This document shows positions 10,320 to 19,866 of a stretch of 48,150 nucleotides of DNA, in pieces. This DNA comes from a virus. The notes under the pieces were generated by a model. It was not told the DNA's origin. It saw only the letters and a list, made by a program, of their open reading frames with translations, and did not search any database. The position numbers and the translations under genes are program-made. The first letter of the stretch is position 1. The number at the start of each line of letters is the position of its first letter. The stretch lies in the IMG/VR virus record IMGVR_UViG_3300000115_000002, positions 1 through 48,150 of that record; one strand, given 5' to 3'.

Positions 10320-11309
10320 TTAGTCTATGCCGTAGAAGGCAGAAACCAATGCTTCACCACGTAACACCTTGGCTCCATATACATGTAAGCCACGAACAAT
10401 ATCACCAAAGCTATCAGGATCACGAATGACCTCTGTGCTAGTGATTGTCTGTGCAGTACATGTAGAAGACATGTGACCAGCAATACACTTACCTGCTGCG
10501 TTAGTCGTAGCGGCAATGTTGTTGGACTTGTACATGTCGAATCCACGGAGTTTACCAGAGCTTACCAATCCATTACGGATAGAACCCTGTCCAGCATTGA
10601 AGTCTACTGACATCAATTTTGAAGAGGATTGTACTAACTGCTCATAAAACTCAGGATTAGCCAAGAACCATCGACCTTCTTCAGGTACGCTTTGCTCATC
10701 GAGCAATCGTGCCATGTGAGAAAGAACATCAATAGGATCATGTTCACCTGATGCATAGCCAATGTCCAAGTTACCAGTACCGTCAAAAGTACCACCAGCA
10801 AGGTCAGTAGCATTGTCAGAACCTAATATATGATTAGGTGAAGACGCAGATACACCAGAGAACATAGCCGCAATTACACCCTCATCAAACGCATCACGCA
10901 AAGCGTAGGCGGCTGAAGAAGTAGCAACTTCACGGAAGTTAACGTGAGACATATTAGTTTCAATGTCATCAACGATAAACTTAAATGCGTTGGCAGTATC
11001 AACAACCAAACTAACCTCTTGGTCAGTAAGTTTTGTTGATGTTATATCTGCACCTCTTTCATACTGATAAACAGTAATCTCAGGCTCTTTAATGATCCTT
11101 ACAGTATCACCAAACGCAGTAATCTCACCAGCATAATCCGTATTTGTGATAGCTTCTGCAACAGAAGACTTACGGAAGAAGTTGAGAACTTGCTTGGAAT
11201 ATACCTTAGGCAAGAAAAATGAATTAGTTTGTCCAGATACTGAGTTACCAAAGTTGGCATTAGTATCTGTACTTGGTTCAAAAAATTGATCTGATTGGTT
11301 ATAAGCCAT
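10320..11309 (-). CDS. Major capsid protein (329 aa)
   Basis: Size, position after the scaffold gene, higher-GC codon usage and a strong terminator all fit. The sequence pattern resembles P22/T7-type HK97-fold coat proteins. Confidence 0.8.
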   Translation of the reverse strand: MAYNQSDQFFEPSTDTNANFGNSVSGQTNSFFLPKVYSKQVLNFFRKSSVAEAITNTDYAGEITAFGDTVRIIKEPEITVYQYERGADITSTKLTDQEVSLVVDTANAFKFIVDDIETNMSHVNFREVATSSAAYALRDAFDEGVIAAMFSGVSASSPNHILGSDNATDLAGGTFDGTGNLDIGYASGEHDPIDVLSHMARLLDEQSVPEEGRWFLANPEFYEQLVQSSSKLMSVDFNAGQGSIRNGLVSSGKLRGFDMYKSNNIAATTNAAGKCIAGHMSSTCTAQTITSTEVIRDPDSFGDIVRGLHVYGAKVLRGEALVSAFYGID

Positions 11310-11341: not shown

Positions 11342-12190
11342 TTAATTAGCTACTATCCTACCCTCTGCCCAAGCTTGATTAATTTCACTTTCATATTTAT
11401 CAAACTGGTCAAGGGACATAGAAGCTATTTCCCTTTCAGTCCAAACCTTAGCTTGCTGTGGATCTACATTTGTTGTTTTAGTAGATACCATATCAGCCGC
11501 TGAAGCAGGTTTCGCTTTAGGTCTTGACCGACGTTTTTGAGGTTGTCCAGTACCAGTTTCTAATTTATAAAGATCAATGGCTTTAGAAGCTAAAGATACA
11601 TTATCAGGATTATTATAAACCCAATCTTGTATTTGCTCTGGTTGTATCTTTGCCCACTCATGGAAGCCATCAGACCCTCTGATATCATCGAAATCAGGGT
11701 GTCTATCACGAAGCGTTGTCTCAGCTTCTTTCCGCATTACCTCAGTTTCACGTTGCCGTAAACTATCAAGTTGAGCTTCAAGATCTGCTACTTGCCGTTG
11801 ACTTTGCATATGAGCTACAGTTTCAACCGTATTATATAAATCAGGATATTCTGTTTTAAACGCCTCTAAATCTTCCTCTGTTTTTGGAGGTTGGTAAGAA
11901 GGCTGTGCGGATTTAGCTTCTGCAAGAAGTTCTCCTTCACGTTGTCTAAACTCAGAAAGTTTCTGATCATAATGCTTCTTTAAATCATCGTATCTTTTTT
12001 TATAATTAGTTCCTTTTTTAGGAGCATCTTCATCAGGGGCCTCATTATCAAGGGTAGCCTGTGATTCTTGATAGAACAATCCATTAGCACCTTGCTTAGA
12101 CGTATTATTTTCTACATCATGCCAAGGTTTTTTTGCATTATATGGATTAGGTTGCTCTTCGTTTTGTTCCTCTACTTGTACTTCGGACAT
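11342..12190 (-). CDS. Scaffolding protein (282 aa)
   Basis: Acidic and charged with coiled-coil character. It lies immediately upstream of the capsid gene. Confidence 0.65.
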   Translation of the reverse strand: MSEVQVEEQNEEQPNPYNAKKPWHDVENNTSKQGANGLFYQESQATLDNEAPDEDAPKKGTNYKKRYDDLKKHYDQKLSEFRQREGELLAEAKSAQPSYQPPKTEEDLEAFKTEYPDLYNTVETVAHMQSQRQVADLEAQLDSLRQRETEVMRKEAETTLRDRHPDFDDIRGSDGFHEWAKIQPEQIQDWVYNNPDNVSLASKAIDLYKLETGTGQPQKRRSRPKAKPASAADMVSTKTTNVDPQQAKVWTEREIASMSLDQFDKYESEINQAWAEGRIVAN

Positions 12191-12284: not shown

Positions 12285-14378
12285 TTATAGAAGACTAGGG
12301 ATTTTATTAGATCCAATCATAGCTCTCTTAATTTCTTCATCAATAGAACTTGGTGAAGCAACTTGAGATTGCTCTTGATTAAACATATATCCACCCACTG
12401 CCTTCTTTTGATAACCGCCATCATAAGCACGTTCTGCATCATCCATCATTCGTTGGAGATTATCAGAGCCTAATTGGTCGGTTGCTTTTCTAGTGAATAC
12501 AAACTCTCCATCTGACAATCGTGCAGGTATTGAGTCTGATACACCACTTCCTGGCCCTTCTACTTCTCCAGAGCCAGAAAATTCTCCTGCGGTTAAAACT
12601 ATACTATCTAAAATTTCTGATAGTTTTGGGTCTTGCTCTAGTCTTACCGCTAAATAATCTTGATCTTCTTCGCTAAGGGATTTATCCATAACGAAATTTA
12701 TATATTGATCTTCCATATCTTCATCAGGAAGTTGGGAAGCCATTGCTGCTTCCATTTCTTCAGGAGGTATGTTGTCATAAGTATCAACTGGCATACCACC
12801 TTCTGCAAATGTTGCATTTGAACTTTTTTCTTTAGTAGGAGAAAGAATAATATCTCTTATTGCCTGAAGAGCTTCAAATTCATCAGAACCTTTTTTAGGT
12901 TTAAAAGGCAAGTTTTCTTTTTTACCAACAGGTAATCCTTTTTCAGGTTTAAAAAGTAAGTTACCTTTTTTACCAGTAGGTAATTCTTTTTCTTCTTTAG
13001 TAGGAGAAAGAATAATATCTCTTATTGCCTGAAGAGCTTTAAATTCATCAGAACCTTTTTCAGGCATCTTCATCTCTTTTTGTAATTTTTGTAATATCCC
13101 ACCACCTTCGTTGTAACCTTGTCTTTCTAACTCTGCTTGTGTTCTTGCCTCGTTAACAACTTTTTGTTGCCTTCGTTGTTCCATAACATTTTGATCAGCA
13201 CGAAACTCTCTTACAGCTTTGTTAGTAGGAAAGATACCTAAAGCTTCAGTTTCATTATCATTTAATGAACCTTTGAAAATATCTGTTGGTTCTTCTTTAC
13301 TCAAGAAGTTTCTTACATCTTGTCCACGGTTGCTTTGTTCTATAGCACCACCGTCAGCCTTTTGAACTTTTAATTGAGTCATGTTCATAAGCATCTTTTG
13401 AGCCGCTTCTATAACACGATCATCAGTTTCAGTACCTCTGTTTCCTTGAAGAGTTCTAATAAAAAGCCTTAACTCATTAGGATTCCTTGTATTTAAATAC
13501 TCTTGAATTTTTTCAAAGCTTCCGAAATCCATGTAGCTTAAAGCAGCTTCTTCAGCATCTAAGTTCATAGCACTATCAATATTACTACTGATAGGTGAAG
13601 AACCCATATCATAATCAAATCCTATATCATCCATAAGATTTTTATAATCTTCTTCAGGAAGATCATTGATTGCACTTTCAAAGTCAGGATCGTCAGAAAG
13701 ATCACGTAAAAATTCTTTCTTTAGAAAAGAATCCTTACTTGAATCTGTAGCTACATCTGCAAGTTTTCCAGTTAAATCTAAAATTTTTCCAGTAATCTTA
13801 CTTCCTATTGCCTTTCTGTCACGGCCTTCTTCTAGACTTTTAAAAGTCTTCATAATTTTATTGACGTTATAAGTTTTACCATCTCCTGAAAATTTAAAAG
13901 TTTTGCCTTTAGAATTTAAAGCTTCTTTTTTTAAATTACTATTTGAATACATAGTAAAATCATTTCCTTCTATAATCGAAGCACCTTCTTTAGGTAATTG
14001 ATTTACACCATATGTATTAGAACGCTTTTTAGGTTGATCATAACCATATGTGTTAGAACGCTTTTTAGGTTGATCTAGGCCTTTATTAGAAAATACAGTA
14101 AGGTCTGAAGGATCTTCTTCTTCTCCAAACATAGAGCTTAGTGTCATTAATCCTAATCCACTTAAACCTGTATATACTGATCCTTTTATAGCTTTAGTAT
14201 TTCCAAAAGACTTCGTTCTATCTTTACCAACTACAGCACCTCTTCCTGTGGCTGTAGCTCCAGGAGTATCAGGAGTTATACCTTGAAGTTCATCCATAAG
14301 TTGCTCAAACTTTCCATCATATTTTTTGAAAAGTTTAGCCCCTTCTTTAACTCCTTTAGCTAATAAACTTATTGCCAT
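12285..14378 (-). CDS. Head-associated repeat-containing protein (697 aa)
   Basis: Lies between the portal and the scaffold. The N-terminus MAISLLAKGVK is shared with the upstream gene. Internal duplications are DQPKKRSNTYG x2 and KGSDEF(K/E)ALQAIRDIILSPTKE x2. It carries the C-terminal motif IPARLSDGEFVFTRKATDQLG. Confidence 0.55.
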   Translation of the reverse strand: MAISLLAKGVKEGAKLFKKYDGKFEQLMDELQGITPDTPGATATGRGAVVGKDRTKSFGNTKAIKGSVYTGLSGLGLMTLSSMFGEEEDPSDLTVFSNKGLDQPKKRSNTYGYDQPKKRSNTYGVNQLPKEGASIIEGNDFTMYSNSNLKKEALNSKGKTFKFSGDGKTYNVNKIMKTFKSLEEGRDRKAIGSKITGKILDLTGKLADVATDSSKDSFLKKEFLRDLSDDPDFESAINDLPEEDYKNLMDDIGFDYDMGSSPISSNIDSAMNLDAEEAALSYMDFGSFEKIQEYLNTRNPNELRLFIRTLQGNRGTETDDRVIEAAQKMLMNMTQLKVQKADGGAIEQSNRGQDVRNFLSKEEPTDIFKGSLNDNETEALGIFPTNKAVREFRADQNVMEQRRQQKVVNEARTQAELERQGYNEGGGILQKLQKEMKMPEKGSDEFKALQAIRDIILSPTKEEKELPTGKKGNLLFKPEKGLPVGKKENLPFKPKKGSDEFEALQAIRDIILSPTKEKSSNATFAEGGMPVDTYDNIPPEEMEAAMASQLPDEDMEDQYINFVMDKSLSEEDQDYLAVRLEQDPKLSEILDSIVLTAGEFSGSGEVEGPGSGVSDSIPARLSDGEFVFTRKATDQLGSDNLQRMMDDAERAYDGGYQKKAVGGYMFNQEQSQVASPSSIDEEIKRAMIGSNKIPSLL

Positions 14379-14977
14379 TATTTTTTTCTCTCTAATACTT
14401 CGTTAACTTGATCAGACAAAGATTTTTTATTTTTAATGTTTAAAACTTTAGGATCATAAACTGTATATTCTAACGTGCCACCAACTTGTTTGAGTTTAGA
14501 ACCTGTTGCATCCTTTAAAGATGCTTTAATTCCATACTTTGAAAAAAGTTTATCTGCATCTTTTTTTGATTCTTGAACTAACTGTTTCCAAAATTTAGGC
14601 TTATCAAAATCTATTTGATCTTTATTTATCTTTTCTTCTTTTATAAGCCTATCAAGTTTTCTCTTAATAGTATTGTTTTGATTTTCAAAATTCTTTCTAA
14701 CTAATAAAATTTCACCTTCTTTAAGTTTAGCGTCTACTTCATAAAGTATAGGCTTCCCATTCTTCTTACGAGCTAAAGCATCGTCAACATAATCTTTACC
14801 CCATAGCTTTTTTATTTGCGTTGGAGTTATCTTTCCATAGCTTTCAGCTAATTTTTTATCCGGAGTAAAAGAAAACCCTTTTCCAAAAGCTGTTTCTTTT
14901 GCGTATTTAGAATCAAACTTACTGAAGTCTTTAACTGCTCCATGAAAAAGTTTTATTCCTTTTCCTAATAAACTCAT
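14378..14977 (-). CDS. Putative ADP-ribosyltransferase-like effector domain protein (199 aa), head-associated by position
   Basis: Motifs KLFHGA..F.KFD, GKGFSFTPDKKLAESYG and LEYTVYDPKVLNIK. It appears homologous to the C-terminal domain of the 1494-aa protein. The functional call is from memory of ART-like polyvalent-protein domains. Confidence 0.4.
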   Translation of the reverse strand: MSLLGKGIKLFHGAVKDFSKFDSKYAKETAFGKGFSFTPDKKLAESYGKITPTQIKKLWGKDYVDDALARKKNGKPILYEVDAKLKEGEILLVRKNFENQNNTIKRKLDRLIKEEKINKDQIDFDKPKFWKQLVQESKKDADKLFSKYGIKASLKDATGSKLKQVGGTLEYTVYDPKVLNIKNKKSLSDQVNEVLERKK

Positions 14978-14978
14978 A

Positions 14979-15047
14979 TTATTCTTTTCTTTCTAATGCT
15001 TCATTAACTTGATCTGGAATACTTTCAAGCCTAGCCAGCAAACTCAT
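14979..15047 (-). pseudogene. 22-codon remnant ORF (MSLLARLESIPDQVNEALERKE) overlapping the portal stop
   Basis: It combines the N-terminal MSLL motif and the C-terminal DQVNEALERK motif of the neighbouring 199-aa gene. The 75-aa track ORF 14979..15206 is an upstream extension of this frame. Confidence 0.35.
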
Positions 15048-17193
15048 CTTCCCCTGGCTGCGGAACATTTCCAGTTCCGATGTTGCCCCCACCAGTACCT
15101 GTAACTCCAAGGTCTTGAGGTTGTTGAGGTGTTCCTGTACCGGCTCCCATAGCTCCTTGTTCTTCACCAGTGGGGCCAGCTTCCGCGCCAGTTGCTTGTC
15201 CAGCATTTTGCATTCCTATGATTTGTGCCATTATGGCTGCTTCTTCAGGATCATTCAAGATCTCATCTGGATCTAAGTCTAATGAATAAGCAAGCTCACT
15301 AATGAGTTTATTAATCTTAATAAATGGAGCTACAGCAGGATTTTGTGCAGTCTGTAAGAAAGTAGTTAGTCGTTGACTGCGTACTTCTTTCTGCATTAAA
15401 CTATTAGTTCCTGTAGCCTTTACCTCCAAATCACCTTCTAAATGTAATTTACTTTCTAAGAATTGCATATTCCATTGAAAGTAAGCTTCTCCCATAGGCT
15501 TCAATAAAAAGTCATCAAGATTTTTAATAACAGTTTTAATGTTTAAAGAAGCTGCACCTAATAACATTGACATCCCTGAAGCTGTACGAGTCATACTCTG
15601 TACGCCTGTCATGCCATGTGAGTAACTAGGTATACCTGTTTGTTCATCTGCAAGCTGTCTAAACTTATCAAACATCATCATGTTTTCAGTTGATGTGTTA
15701 GGAAACTTCAGTCCATTAATAGCTGTACCAGGAACTCCAGCTTGCCTTCTAAATACTTTTCCAGGATATATCTCCATTGACTGACCTCCAGCCAAAGCAG
15801 ACTCATCTACATCAAAAACCAGTGAGCCACTAAGAGCAAGGTTATCAATCGCCATACGTGCATGACCATTCATAATCTTTTGGGAGTCATCCATGTTTTC
15901 AGCAACACCAATACCAAAGAAGCTATACGGATTCTTTTCGTAAGCAAAAGCATGGTAAGGTATTCTAAACGGAGTGAAAGGGTTTACTACAGCCCTTAGA
16001 AGTAATCCGTTACATATCCAAGCATTGACTTGTACTTCATCTAAGTCATCTATCTCATCAGGAAGCTCCATACCTATCTGCCGACAATACTCAGCATCCA
16101 TAGCTCCCCAGTATTCTAATACATCAAACTGAGAAGCTCCATAAGCATCTGACTTATTATCATCTTTTAATTCTTGCTCATAGTCTTTCTCAACATAATT
16201 AGGCCCCATCCTGAGACAGTCTCTAATCATTTCTTTATCGAAGTAAGGCATCTTTGTTAGACCCCTTAGTTGAGTTCGATTCATTCTGTGTCTATGAAAA
16301 ACATATTCACATTCATTAATACTAGTAGCATTGGGATCAGGAAAGAAGTCCCAAATAGAAACAAACTCTAATCTAGGAACACGTACATCGACAGGTCTAT
16401 AAACTCTTTCTCCATCTTCTTGTTGTTCCCACTTATGTAATGTCTTATTAAAGTTAAAAGGCCCTTTGACAATTCCAGTGCCAAATAACGAAGCTTCAAA
16501 TAAAGAGTTACGAATTTCACTAGCTCCGTTTGATTCTTCTATTTGATCATGTATTAACTGCTCCATACGTCTAGCAGCTTCTTGTGCTGGATTAACTTCA
16601 GGAGCTTGAGGATTTGGAGAGAGTCCTTCAGATAATTTATCTTGTTCTTCTAACTGAACTTCAAGAGGAGTATCTTCAAACTTACCTTTACCAAAGGTTG
16701 CTCCAGCTTTAAGTATTTTACCATCACCTTCATAGCCTACATCAAAAGGACTTTCAGTTTCTTCTTCCATCTGCTCTTGAGTTGTTTCTAATCCTGGTAA
16801 AGGATTTTGAACATCTACATGAGCATACTTTAATACACCTTCAGGAAGTTTAGTTTCCTGAATACCTATTGGAAACTTATTTGCTCCAAAGACTACATCA
16901 ACAAGCTGACCAAAAGCAGCAAGAACTTTAGTCTTAGTTACTTTGACAAAGACTCTTGATTTTTCAGATTCTCTAAATTTTACATTCTTTGCGTAAAGAC
17001 CTCGATAGTTATGATAAGCAGTAAGCCACCTAGACTCATCTAAGTCTCTGCTATGTTCAGCAGAAGCAAACCTATCATTTACAAGACCTACAAAATTATT
17101 TCGTAAGTTTTCTTCTAAAGAAAGTATAATACCCTGTTCTTCAGGTTCTTCTTGAAAATATACAGAGTTTGCTGTTAAATCATTTTCTGACAT
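15031..17193 (-). CDS. Portal protein (720 aa)
   Basis: Size, position downstream of terL, and a Gly/Thr/Gln-rich acidic C-terminal tail. Confidence 0.75.
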   Translation of the reverse strand: MSENDLTANSVYFQEEPEEQGIILSLEENLRNNFVGLVNDRFASAEHSRDLDESRWLTAYHNYRGLYAKNVKFRESEKSRVFVKVTKTKVLAAFGQLVDVVFGANKFPIGIQETKLPEGVLKYAHVDVQNPLPGLETTQEQMEEETESPFDVGYEGDGKILKAGATFGKGKFEDTPLEVQLEEQDKLSEGLSPNPQAPEVNPAQEAARRMEQLIHDQIEESNGASEIRNSLFEASLFGTGIVKGPFNFNKTLHKWEQQEDGERVYRPVDVRVPRLEFVSIWDFFPDPNATSINECEYVFHRHRMNRTQLRGLTKMPYFDKEMIRDCLRMGPNYVEKDYEQELKDDNKSDAYGASQFDVLEYWGAMDAEYCRQIGMELPDEIDDLDEVQVNAWICNGLLLRAVVNPFTPFRIPYHAFAYEKNPYSFFGIGVAENMDDSQKIMNGHARMAIDNLALSGSLVFDVDESALAGGQSMEIYPGKVFRRQAGVPGTAINGLKFPNTSTENMMMFDKFRQLADEQTGIPSYSHGMTGVQSMTRTASGMSMLLGAASLNIKTVIKNLDDFLLKPMGEAYFQWNMQFLESKLHLEGDLEVKATGTNSLMQKEVRSQRLTTFLQTAQNPAVAPFIKINKLISELAYSLDLDPDEILNDPEEAAIMAQIIGMQNAGQATGAEAGPTGEEQGAMGAGTGTPQQPQDLGVTGTGGGNIGTGNVPQPGEDEFAG

Positions 17194-18174: not shown

Positions 18175-19866
18175 TTAATATCCGAACTCCGTATCGGAGG
18201 GTGTGTAAGCCTGTTCCCTTCGTAAGTTTCTAAATTGACTGAATATGTCATTTACTTTAGGTCTAGACATAATTAAATATCTTAATGCATCATACGCATG
18301 ATCAGGTGCATGTGTATCTACATCTTCTGGATTAGATCGATCCAGAGGAATACATTGAAGTTCGCGTATCAGGTTAGGGCAGCAGTTAAATATCTGTATC
18401 TTAGGCCTTCCGCTTGGCTGTACTCGCAAGTATTCGTGGATCTGTATTTTTCCTTGTATCCGATTTTTATCGGCCCTACGCAGTTTATGCCCTGCTCTAA
18501 GTAGTGTCTCCCCTACTGTAGGGCCTGTAGTCCCTGTTCTGTTCCATGCGGCAGTATCTAATACGCCTTGAACTGAAAAGGGATCTTGCAATTCCATATT
18601 AATCAATAATTGTGCTAAGTCAACACCAGTTAGATTCTTCTGATATAACTCTCTGTAAATTATCAAAGTTCCATCAGAGGGATCTAAGGCTCCCCAAACA
18701 CAAGCACTCTCTGAAGCGTATCCATAGTCAATACCCTTCACTCTCTCCCAATGCACTGGTATATCAAAAGGTGTAATAACATGAGTCTCTACTTCAAACT
18801 CTGTAAACGCTGCACCCTCTGTAACATCCCAATTACCTTCCAGCAGTTGTTTTCTTTGCACTGGAGGTAGTGCTTTGAGCATCTGCTCATATCTTCCATC
18901 CTTTGCTAGATATGGATTGTCTTCTAATCTAGCAGGAATAAACTTTCTTGACAACCCATCATGGCCTAAAAAAGACTCATTAGGAGGACAAGGATTGATA
19001 TATCTCTTTCTTACCCAGCTTGATCCTGCTCCTCCTGGGTTGGCAGTACATCTCATATAAGGTGTAATATTAGGATCTGTTGTTCTTAAACGAGAAGATA
19101 AATAGTTCCATGCAAACTCTGTTGCAAGGTGTGTAATCTCATCAAAACCAATCCAGCTATAAGCTTGGCCTTGGTAACGATAAACATCTGCATCTCGTTC
19201 AAGGAACCCAAACTCTACCTTAGCTCCACTAGGGAAAGTCCAAACTTTCTCTACTTCCCGAAATCTACATCCTGGAAAAGCTTTTGGATATAATTCTCTA
19301 CTTTTATCTATAAGTTCTCGTAGCTCTGGCATAGATCTTCTGATTACCAAAGCACGATGAGCTTCTTTATGAGCGTACCTAAGCGGATCAACGATCATCG
19401 CATAGGATTTACCACCTCCTGCTGCACCTCCGTAGAGAACGTCTGTTTCAGGTGCTGCTAAGAATTCTGTCTGTGGCCCTTCGTTAGGGCTAAAGATAAC
19501 ATTTTTATTTTCTAATTCTTTTTGTAAAGATTGTGGTAAACTCTCTACAGTATCAGAAGTAACTATCTTACCTTCTTTAGGACTTTCTTTATTATCTATT
19601 TTAAATAATGTAGATCGTGAATTCTTTAATGATACCTTATGAGACTTTAACTTAGCCTCTGCTTTCTTTATAAGTCTTTCTTTACTTTTAACACTTCTAT
19701 TAGCTTTTAATCTTTCTTTAGTTACAGAAGAATAGTTGTATCCTTTAGACTTGACTCCTTTCTTTCGACCGCCTTTCTTCTTAGGCGTTCCATCAACCTT
19801 TAGAATAAACTCTCCGTTAGCATCCTTTAGGTAGTTTTCAGGATTTACTTCCCATTCTTTCTGCAT
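18175..19866 (-). CDS. terL: Terminase large subunit (563 aa)
   Basis: Walker A YGGAAGGGKSY, a downstream ATPase/nuclease-type pattern, and a Lys-rich ~130-aa N-terminal extension. Confidence 0.9.
   Translation of the reverse strand: MQKEWEVNPENYLKDANGEFILKVDGTPKKKGGRKKGVKSKGYNYSSVTKERLKANRSVKSKERLIKKAEAKLKSHKVSLKNSRSTLFKIDNKESPKEGKIVTSDTVESLPQSLQKELENKNVIFSPNEGPQTEFLAAPETDVLYGGAAGGGKSYAMIVDPLRYAHKEAHRALVIRRSMPELRELIDKSRELYPKAFPGCRFREVEKVWTFPSGAKVEFGFLERDADVYRYQGQAYSWIGFDEITHLATEFAWNYLSSRLRTTDPNITPYMRCTANPGGAGSSWVRKRYINPCPPNESFLGHDGLSRKFIPARLEDNPYLAKDGRYEQMLKALPPVQRKQLLEGNWDVTEGAAFTEFEVETHVITPFDIPVHWERVKGIDYGYASESACVWGALDPSDGTLIIYRELYQKNLTGVDLAQLLINMELQDPFSVQGVLDTAAWNRTGTTGPTVGETLLRAGHKLRRADKNRIQGKIQIHEYLRVQPSGRPKIQIFNCCPNLIRELQCIPLDRSNPEDVDTHAPDHAYDALRYLIMSRPKVNDIFSQFRNLRREQAYTPSDTEFGY

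Follow-up and report, generated by a model that had tools for sequence, protein, structure and literature searches.

Why is a single gene of a phage enclosed by two near copies of the same gene junction? This question is raised by a stretch of viral DNA comprising 48,150 nt, positions 1 to 48,150 of IMG/VR record IMGVR_UViG_3300000115_000002 (hereafter the window, meaning this whole stretch). Behind the portal gene, the window carries a gene for a 199-aa protein with a domain resembling the ART-PolyVal family (ART, ADP-ribosyltransferase), and this gene lies between two direct repeats of approximately 65 nt, R1 and R2. We propose that an ART-PolyVal-like effector module was inserted in the lineage of this phage, with duplication of a native junction, at a hypervariable portal-proximal site; we consider this explanation probable, at roughly 0.65. 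The features on which the argument depends are as follows.

15031-17193, minus strand: portal gene, 720 aa (Pfam SU10_portal, 92 bits; PHROG 332, 4.6e-80; PHROG 1216)
15214-15218, minus strand: TAGGA, an in-frame stop and AGGA Shine-Dalgarno-like site, conserved upstream of the small gene
14979-15206, minus strand: small gene, 75 aa, in the +1 frame relative to the portal (kept in 91/91 loci; drop in portal third-position diversity)
14951-15014, minus strand: junction repeat R1 (alignment and shuffles)
14378-14977, minus strand: 199-aa gene, ART-PolyVal-like (Pfam, 26.5 bits; homologues)
14346-14413, minus strand: junction repeat R2 (alignment and shuffles)
12285-14378, minus strand: gene for a 697-aa variable post-portal protein (C-terminal module; orthologues)

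Two similar junctions around the 199-aa gene

A preliminary description of this DNA had located and transcribed both repeats correctly, on the minus strand, and its account of their content (the C-terminus of one protein, a stop/start junction and the N-terminus of the next) was seen to hold for each copy, as was its statement that the 199-aa gene is bracketed by them. R1 comprises the final 11 codons of the small gene (DQVNEALERKE), TAA, a single T and, from its ATG, codons 1-9 of the 199-aa gene (MSLLGKGIK). R2 comprises the final 11 codons of the 199-aa gene (DQVNEVLERKK), a TAA/ATG overlap and codons 1-11 of the 697-aa gene (MAISLLAKGVK). The junction is thus TAA-T-ATG in R1 and TAATG, with a 1-nt overlap, in R2. 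In an ungapped alignment, 33 of the first 37 nt (DQVNE.LERK., the stop and one further base) were identical, or 32 of the 36 nt through the stop (89%) when the split was made by codons. The copies differ in length by 4 nt after this 37-nt core (ATG versus GGCAATA), and 20 of the final 24 nt, which encode SLL.KG.K, are identical.

When the R1 region was compared with the whole 48-kb window using BLASTN, R2 was the sole significant second match (E = 1e-6, ungapped core). The gapped local score between R1 and R2 was 41, compared with 19.7 ± 2.1, and at most 27, when the surrounding 5.5 kb was shuffled 200 times by a dinucleotide-type procedure, and no R1-like gene junction besides R2 was found elsewhere in the window. 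We detected nothing above chance in R1 or R2 that resembled a promoter, a terminator or an RNA structure. The exact 199-aa protein was present on 19 contigs read for that look-up. R1 and R2 were the same as in the window, at a spacing of 601 nt, in 12/12 loci examined (10 and 2 from two look-ups, some sharing contigs, derived from several ENA and Tara samples). Because both copies recur unchanged in 12 loci from several samples, the arrangement is no assembly artefact.

Origin of the duplicated junction

Two relatives without the ART gene, L129 and L131, were informative about the state before duplication. L129, which is 86.5% identical to the window at the nucleotide level over the portal 3' end and the small gene, reads ...DQVTEAMERKE*, TAAT-ATG, MSLLSKGVKEGIKLFKKYDGKFEQ..., so that a gene resembling that of the 697-aa protein directly follows the small gene. 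L131 shares this order, and in both relatives the 697-like gene begins with MSLLSKGVKEG. The ancestral state was therefore a small gene, one junction and a 697-like gene. Over the 36-nt tail, each repeat matched L129 at 26-27 positions, compared with the 32 at which R1 and R2 match each other. Moreover, the best match of R2 among more than 80 junctions was R1, with a score of 41 versus at most 29 for the others. R1 and R2 are therefore mutually closest, which indicates that the duplication arose inside the window lineage. We also considered that R2 came from the small gene of another lineage (for example, of the L004 type, ...VVNEVLERKE); this was ruled out because R1 is the best match of R2. 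As for the preliminary interpretation, the view of the 199-aa gene as inserted cargo with a duplicated junction on either side is supported.

In the proposed event, an ART-PolyVal-like module would have entered between the small gene and the post-portal gene in the window lineage, and its two ends would have been joined at staggered junction points. The left end may have been joined after the leader codons ...SLL.KG, possibly through the shared microhomology GIKLF / GGAATAAAACTTTT; judging from its presence in both the leader's ...EGIKLF... and the ...KGIKLFHG of the ART domain, GGAATAAAACTTTT is a candidate left crossover point. The right end would have been joined before the ...DQVNE of the small gene's tail. 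Such staggered joining would leave approximately 65 nt of native junction on both sides of the insert. The insert would thereby be closed by a ready-made stop codon, the 697-aa gene would retain, in complete copy, both the native context of stop/start coupling and the N-terminal leader, and two separately translated proteins would start with the same leader. In the 199-aa protein, the ART-PolyVal-like domain occupies approximately residues 5-187, and the tail DQVNEVLERKK is copied from the end of the small gene. The junction repeat is the ordinary footprint of one insertion event and not a new recombination system.

Several observations weigh against this explanation. L129 and L131 are short ENA contigs of 0.8-1.4 kb, and neither a donor sequence nor the exact breakpoints could be shown. 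Relatives in which the ART domain is fused to a following body carry VLER(A/T)KK right behind the domain; part of the similarity between R1 and R2 may therefore pre-date the event or reflect gene conversion. The match of the 199-aa protein to Pfam ART-PolyVal (26.5 bits, E = 1.2e-5) did not reach the gathering score, which is 31.2, the Tyr and Asp catalytic positions of the family were not assignable in it, a profile search of PDB sequences gave no relative, and an AlphaFold2 model built from a 4-sequence alignment was unusable, with a predicted local distance difference test (pLDDT) score of 50. Finally, the 199-aa protein has no C-terminal module of the kind common to 82/84 post-portal proteins, and its packaging is therefore uncertain.

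The preliminary description had offered another explanation, in which the junction repeats provide portable homology for cargo that is repeatedly gained, lost and swapped, and a 22-codon open reading frame (ORF) behind the portal is an emptied cassette. In favour of this model, one cargo-type gene is indeed enclosed by direct repeats, the interval varies greatly between relatives (1-7 genes), and the empty-site junction of L129 resembles the left part of R1 joined to the right part of R2, as a precise deletion would also look. However, a second copy of the junction occurred in only 1 of 88 distinct junctions, that of the window lineage, both copies and the ART gene were unchanged in all 12 loci examined, and the ART gene lay upstream in 6/6 contigs with the exact 697-aa protein. 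The tail of L129 is 72-75% identical to either repeat, compared with 89% between the repeats, and L129 is therefore no recent excision product. In addition, an identical block that begins at 15131 in the mosaic relative L098 covers the ART and 697-aa genes together, and the 22 codons have, throughout, a homologous counterpart in a conserved gene of genomes without a cassette. Swapping of cassettes between the same junction repeats was looked for across the related loci and none was seen; neither different cargo between R1 and R2 nor a precise R1 × R2 deletion was found among the loci examined, and the same repeat was never seen to bound differing cassettes in different genomes. Recurrent gain and loss through these repeats is thus very unlikely.

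An alternative that we consider rather unlikely is fission of an ancestral fusion of the ART domain with its body, as found in L088-L095, after which the two junctions were made similar by gene conversion without any target duplication. Conversion could have been seeded by pre-existing similarity, namely VLERKK and a motif resembling the SLL leader after the ART domain. Indeed, the fused relatives read ...KNKK-VLER(A/T)KKN..EMKVPKLKYAVGSVAQ..GADSLLSEARKD, the nucleotides of L095 (GTTTTAGAAAGAGCTAAAAAAAATAGAGG) can be set beside those of the window (GTATTAGAGAGAAAAAAATAATGG), and L106 would be an independent split at the same domain boundary. This model is at odds with the 5' end of the 697-aa gene, which is orthologous to the L129 and L131 genes and not to the AVGSVAQ... 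body of the fused forms, and with the ART domain of the window, which is nearer to the domain of T7 gp16-like proteins (68%) than to the fused type (58-62%). Functional convergence, in which selection for a shared initiation context and an N-terminal targeting or processing peptide keeps the repeats alike, would account for the wide occurrence of the leader motif (34/84 first genes, and also before the ART domain in giant proteins) and for tight stop/start coupling at both junctions. Yet the most similar part of the repeats (89%) is the 36 nt encoding the C-terminus of the upstream protein, synonymous positions match too, a common C-terminus is not to be expected of a small helical protein and an enzyme, and no further gene junction in the 48-kb window is alike. 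We accordingly regard convergence as highly improbable, and insertion with duplication of the junction is the explanation retained below.

A conserved small gene over the portal tail

The 22-codon ORF (14979-15047) was initially taken for the scar of a deleted paralogue. We found that it is the 3' end of the 75-codon small gene, in whose ORF, starting at 15206, the ATG at 15047 is codon 54 and encodes an internal Met. Over their entire length, the 22 codons can be aligned with the C-terminal third of a conserved 71-86-aa protein in cassette-free relatives (for example, KMSLLARLESIPDQVNEALERKE versus KMNFLARLETLPAQVDEALERKEYE), and such homology contradicts the scar interpretation. The MSLL at the beginning of the 22-codon ORF is also fixed, in the other frame, by the conserved ...EDEFAG* end of the portal.

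The small gene overlaps the last 176 nt of the portal gene (15031-15206) in the +1 frame. A 71-86-codon ORF matching it in position and frame was present in 91/91 related loci that include the portal 3' end, among them three cultured pelagiphages. Among 75 distinct portals, third-position diversity was 0.43-0.59 over codons 1-660 (one 20-codon block, 0.34) and 0.20-0.25 over codons 661-720, and the small ORF begins at codon 663. In the approximately 15 codons past the portal stop, diversity followed the order position 3 > position 1 > position 2 (0.56, 0.45 and 0.33) in the frame of the small gene. An AGGA Shine-Dalgarno-like site lies 7 nt before the ATG and overlaps the upstream stop (TAGGA); the commonest upstream sequences listed contain TAGGA or TAGGG, HTVC033P (L003) has TGGGA, and the ATG is kept in nearly all loci. 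A profile search yielded a family of 184 clusters at 50% identity, nearly all of approximately 60-85 aa, whose distant members L126 and L127 are stand-alone, non-overlapping genes directly after the portal. Judged by its presence in all 91 loci, the suppressed synonymous sites of the portal, its own AGGA-ATG and these stand-alone orthologues, the 75-codon ORF is a real dual-coding gene. As in other overprinted phage genes, an alternative-frame ORF is conserved across genomes, synonymous change is suppressed in the overlapped gene, and the start is independent. In contrast to those genes, the extent of the overlap varies among relatives, reaching 176-203 nt in the group of the window, compared with approximately 77 nt in HMO-2011 (35 nt from the annotated start) and approximately 0 nt in L126. 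The portal C-terminus is a Gly/Thr/Pro-rich tail, ...GGGNIGTGNVPQPGEDEFAG*, and this low-complexity tail appears to have extended over a pre-existing small gene.

It had also been suggested that the 75-aa frame is reached by frameshifting from the portal ORF. This suggestion was not borne out: an in-frame stop is located 4-5 codons upstream of the small gene's start in 111/113 loci (4 codons in the window), and, unlike the product of a programmed frameshift, the small gene has its own AGGA and ATG and stand-alone orthologues. No RNA structure stood out, since the junctions folded no better than shuffled sequences (z = -1.1 and +1.3). In four database proteins (P0147, P0155, P0167 and P0244), the portal frame runs into the small-gene frame at differing points; these chimeras are most likely frameshift or assembly errors in metagenome assemblies.

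In HMO-2011 (L128, NC_021864, 2498-2716), the small gene is gp50, a hypothetical protein, and it lacks annotation in the three cultured pelagiphages (HTVC115P, HTVC104P and HTVC033P). The annotation of HMO-2011 gp50 begins at a GTG (58 aa). Translation from an ATG located 14 codons farther upstream yields MDKKQILSNLKPLVGNN..., in agreement with the family N-terminus; the annotated gene is probably too short, and this ATG its true start. The small protein had no match in Pfam, PHROG or PADLOC and was predicted to be all-helical with low confidence (pLDDT 63).

The ART-like protein and the portal-to-scaffold interval

Homologues of the ART-PolyVal-like domain were found in several architectures. 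A homologous domain lies near the C-terminus of T7 gp16-like internal virion proteins of 1458-1580 aa (68% identity), which match PHROG 342 (internal virion protein with endolysin domain) and PHROG 7348, and another forms the N-terminus of 623-743-aa post-portal proteins in other HMO-2011-type phages (58-62% identity). The domain is therefore modular, being internal, N-terminally fused, split by a frameshift (L106) or free-standing (window). Occurrence in large virion-associated proteins was observed for the homologues, not for the 199-aa protein of the window itself. In L106, a 198-aa ART gene is separated from its body gene (359 aa, MKKTKRTKKAVGSVAQ...) by a frame change in an A-rich run, GATAAAAATGAAAAAAACTAAAAG, at positions 640-800; either the gene is truly split there, at the same boundary between domains, or the contig was misassembled. 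The ART-PolyVal scores of the homologues P0001, P0003 and L091 were 28.4-30.1 bits, and that of the homologous domain in the giant protein of L084 was 31.7 bits, just over the gathering score. The 199-aa protein was not found in a phage GenBank collection, and a scan of JGI metagenomes returned fused and gp16-like forms only.

The ART-PolyVal family (PF18760) is the commonest protein-modifying domain of phage polyvalent proteins, and its active site comprises a His in strand 1, a Tyr in strand 2 and an Asp in strand 5 (PMC5512222). In the 199-aa protein, His12 in KLFHG is invariant among four homologues, as are GKGFSFTP, Tyr47, E170-Y-T and D175-P. The window domain resembles the proteins described by Iyer et al. 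in 2017 (PMC5512222) in its putative family, as suggested by profile hidden Markov models, in its setting among the structural genes of portal/terminase phages, and in that it is embedded elsewhere in a 1458-1580-aa gp16-like protein and shuffled between architectures. It differs from them as a free-standing 199-aa portal-adjacent gene made with a junction duplication, with a score below the curated cut-off and an H-Y-D active site confirmed only for the invariant His12. Polyvalent virion proteins with ART domains are predicted to be packaged and injected, and T4 Alt is the experimental model (PMC5512222). Alt, an ADP-ribosyltransferase-type enzyme of the head module, is of another ART clade (R-S-E) (PMC5512222). 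The homologues of the 199-aa protein sit inside internal virion proteins, and by analogy with them it probably functions like T4 Alt, as an enzyme that is delivered to the host or acts on it.

The 697-aa protein is the orthologue of HTVC115P gp72 and HTVC104P gp81. Its C-terminal module, ...GEVEGPGSGVSDSIPARLSDGEFVFT...PSLL, is common to 82/84 related loci and is also present in gp49, the corresponding post-portal protein of HMO-2011, in which gp50 occupies the position of the small gene; it looks like a widespread virion-anchoring or ejection module. The C-terminal approximately 170 aa (12285-12800) also match PHROGs 3547, 6090 and 971, which bear tape measure or endolysin labels. In-frame tandem repeats occur inside the 697-aa gene (12824-13064, 12889-12992 and 14007-14075; periods of 165, 48 and 36 nt), and their copy number varies between population contigs. 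The L103 version encodes 681 aa, with gaps of 36 nt and 12 nt, and L098 is without approximately 126 nt around 12891-13190. No close relatives of the 697-aa protein were found when sought in IMG/VR.

Both window genes start with M(AI)SLL.KG.K, and within the window this sharing is explained by the duplication. A motif M..S[MIL]L opens the first post-portal gene in 34/84 loci, and a related stretch, YVLG..VKG..K, precedes the ART domain inside the giant gp16-like proteins, which supports the view that the SLL.KG.K N-terminus belongs to a recurrent leader motif. T-even internal proteins offer a possible parallel, being diverse cargo with a short conserved N-terminal peptide at a variable locus (PMC3012670), and the shared leader is possibly a targeting or processing signal analogous to the T4 capsid targeting sequence (PMC3012670). 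In contrast to the latter, the leader in the window is a by-product of duplication and is found in only approximately 40% of related genomes.

Among 84 distinct loci, the interval from the small gene to the scaffold-position gene ranged from 669 to 2789 nt and contained 1-7 genes. These data support the view that the stretch from portal to scaffold is a hot spot in which gene content varies. In L044, L045, L049, L050, L055, L056, L059 and L064, 2-6 small and mostly basic genes (approximately 41-100 aa) were observed ahead of the gene with the C-terminal module, following the small gene; examples at this portal-proximal site are MALKKSQKSLKSWT... and MKVKAPAGYHWMKQ.... The post-portal proteins of L064, L070 and L077 carry a KSQKSLK.WT module as a fusion. 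The cultured phages HMO-2011, HTVC115P and HTVC104P differ from the window in having neither an ART module nor a junction repeat.

On the minus strand of the window, the gene order is terminase, portal, small gene, 199-aa gene, 697-aa gene, 282-aa scaffold-position protein and capsid. The flanking genes are as follows.

18175-19866, minus strand: large terminase
11342-12190, minus strand: 282-aa scaffold-position protein, PHROG 13678 (conserved right border of the variable interval)
10320-11309, minus strand: major capsid protein, 329 aa

This region was closest to the Pelagibacter phages HTVC104P, HTVC103P, HTVC115P and HTVC033P, Roseobacter CRP phages and Puniceispirillum phage HMO-2011. The window comes from a marine podovirus that belongs to the HMO-2011-type group (PMC9038755). 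An exact look-up of the portal protein found it not on record. Two mosaic boundaries were observed: relative to L096, identity was 100% below approximately 18080 and 60-78% in the terminase, and relative to L098, it was 60-85% in the portal and 100% from approximately 15131 through the ART and 697-aa genes. R1 was considered as a recombination breakpoint and rejected, because the last difference of L098 from the window, at 15131, lies approximately 115 nt upstream of R1.

SAR11, SAR116 and Roseobacter bacteria are the hosts of HMO-2011-type phages, which count among the most abundant viruses of seawater, and the genes of their structural module are mostly still labelled "hypothetical". The locus combines known kinds of change, namely the shuffling of an effector domain from one virion protein to another, an insertion that duplicated a junction, and an overprinted gene. 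Its most useful by-product is the conserved small gene over the portal tail, which annotation has overlooked in most genomes. For this group, the portal-scaffold interval is the main site of variation in the structural module, and in some lineages it houses an ADP-ribosyltransferase-like module that is fused, split by a frameshift or free-standing. The presence of the same module inside gp16-like ejected proteins of other marine podoviruses suggests, by analogy, a host-modifying enzyme delivered at infection. It is also conceivable, but quite unlikely, that the leader M-S-L-L-x-K-G-x-K and the small portal-overlapping protein make up a system by which HMO-2011-type phages in general load the cargo that they eject, in which case the junction duplication would have been the domain's route to becoming an independently packaged, host-directed ADP-ribosyltransferase. 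If this were true, the portal-proximal site would be a plug-in slot for effectors.

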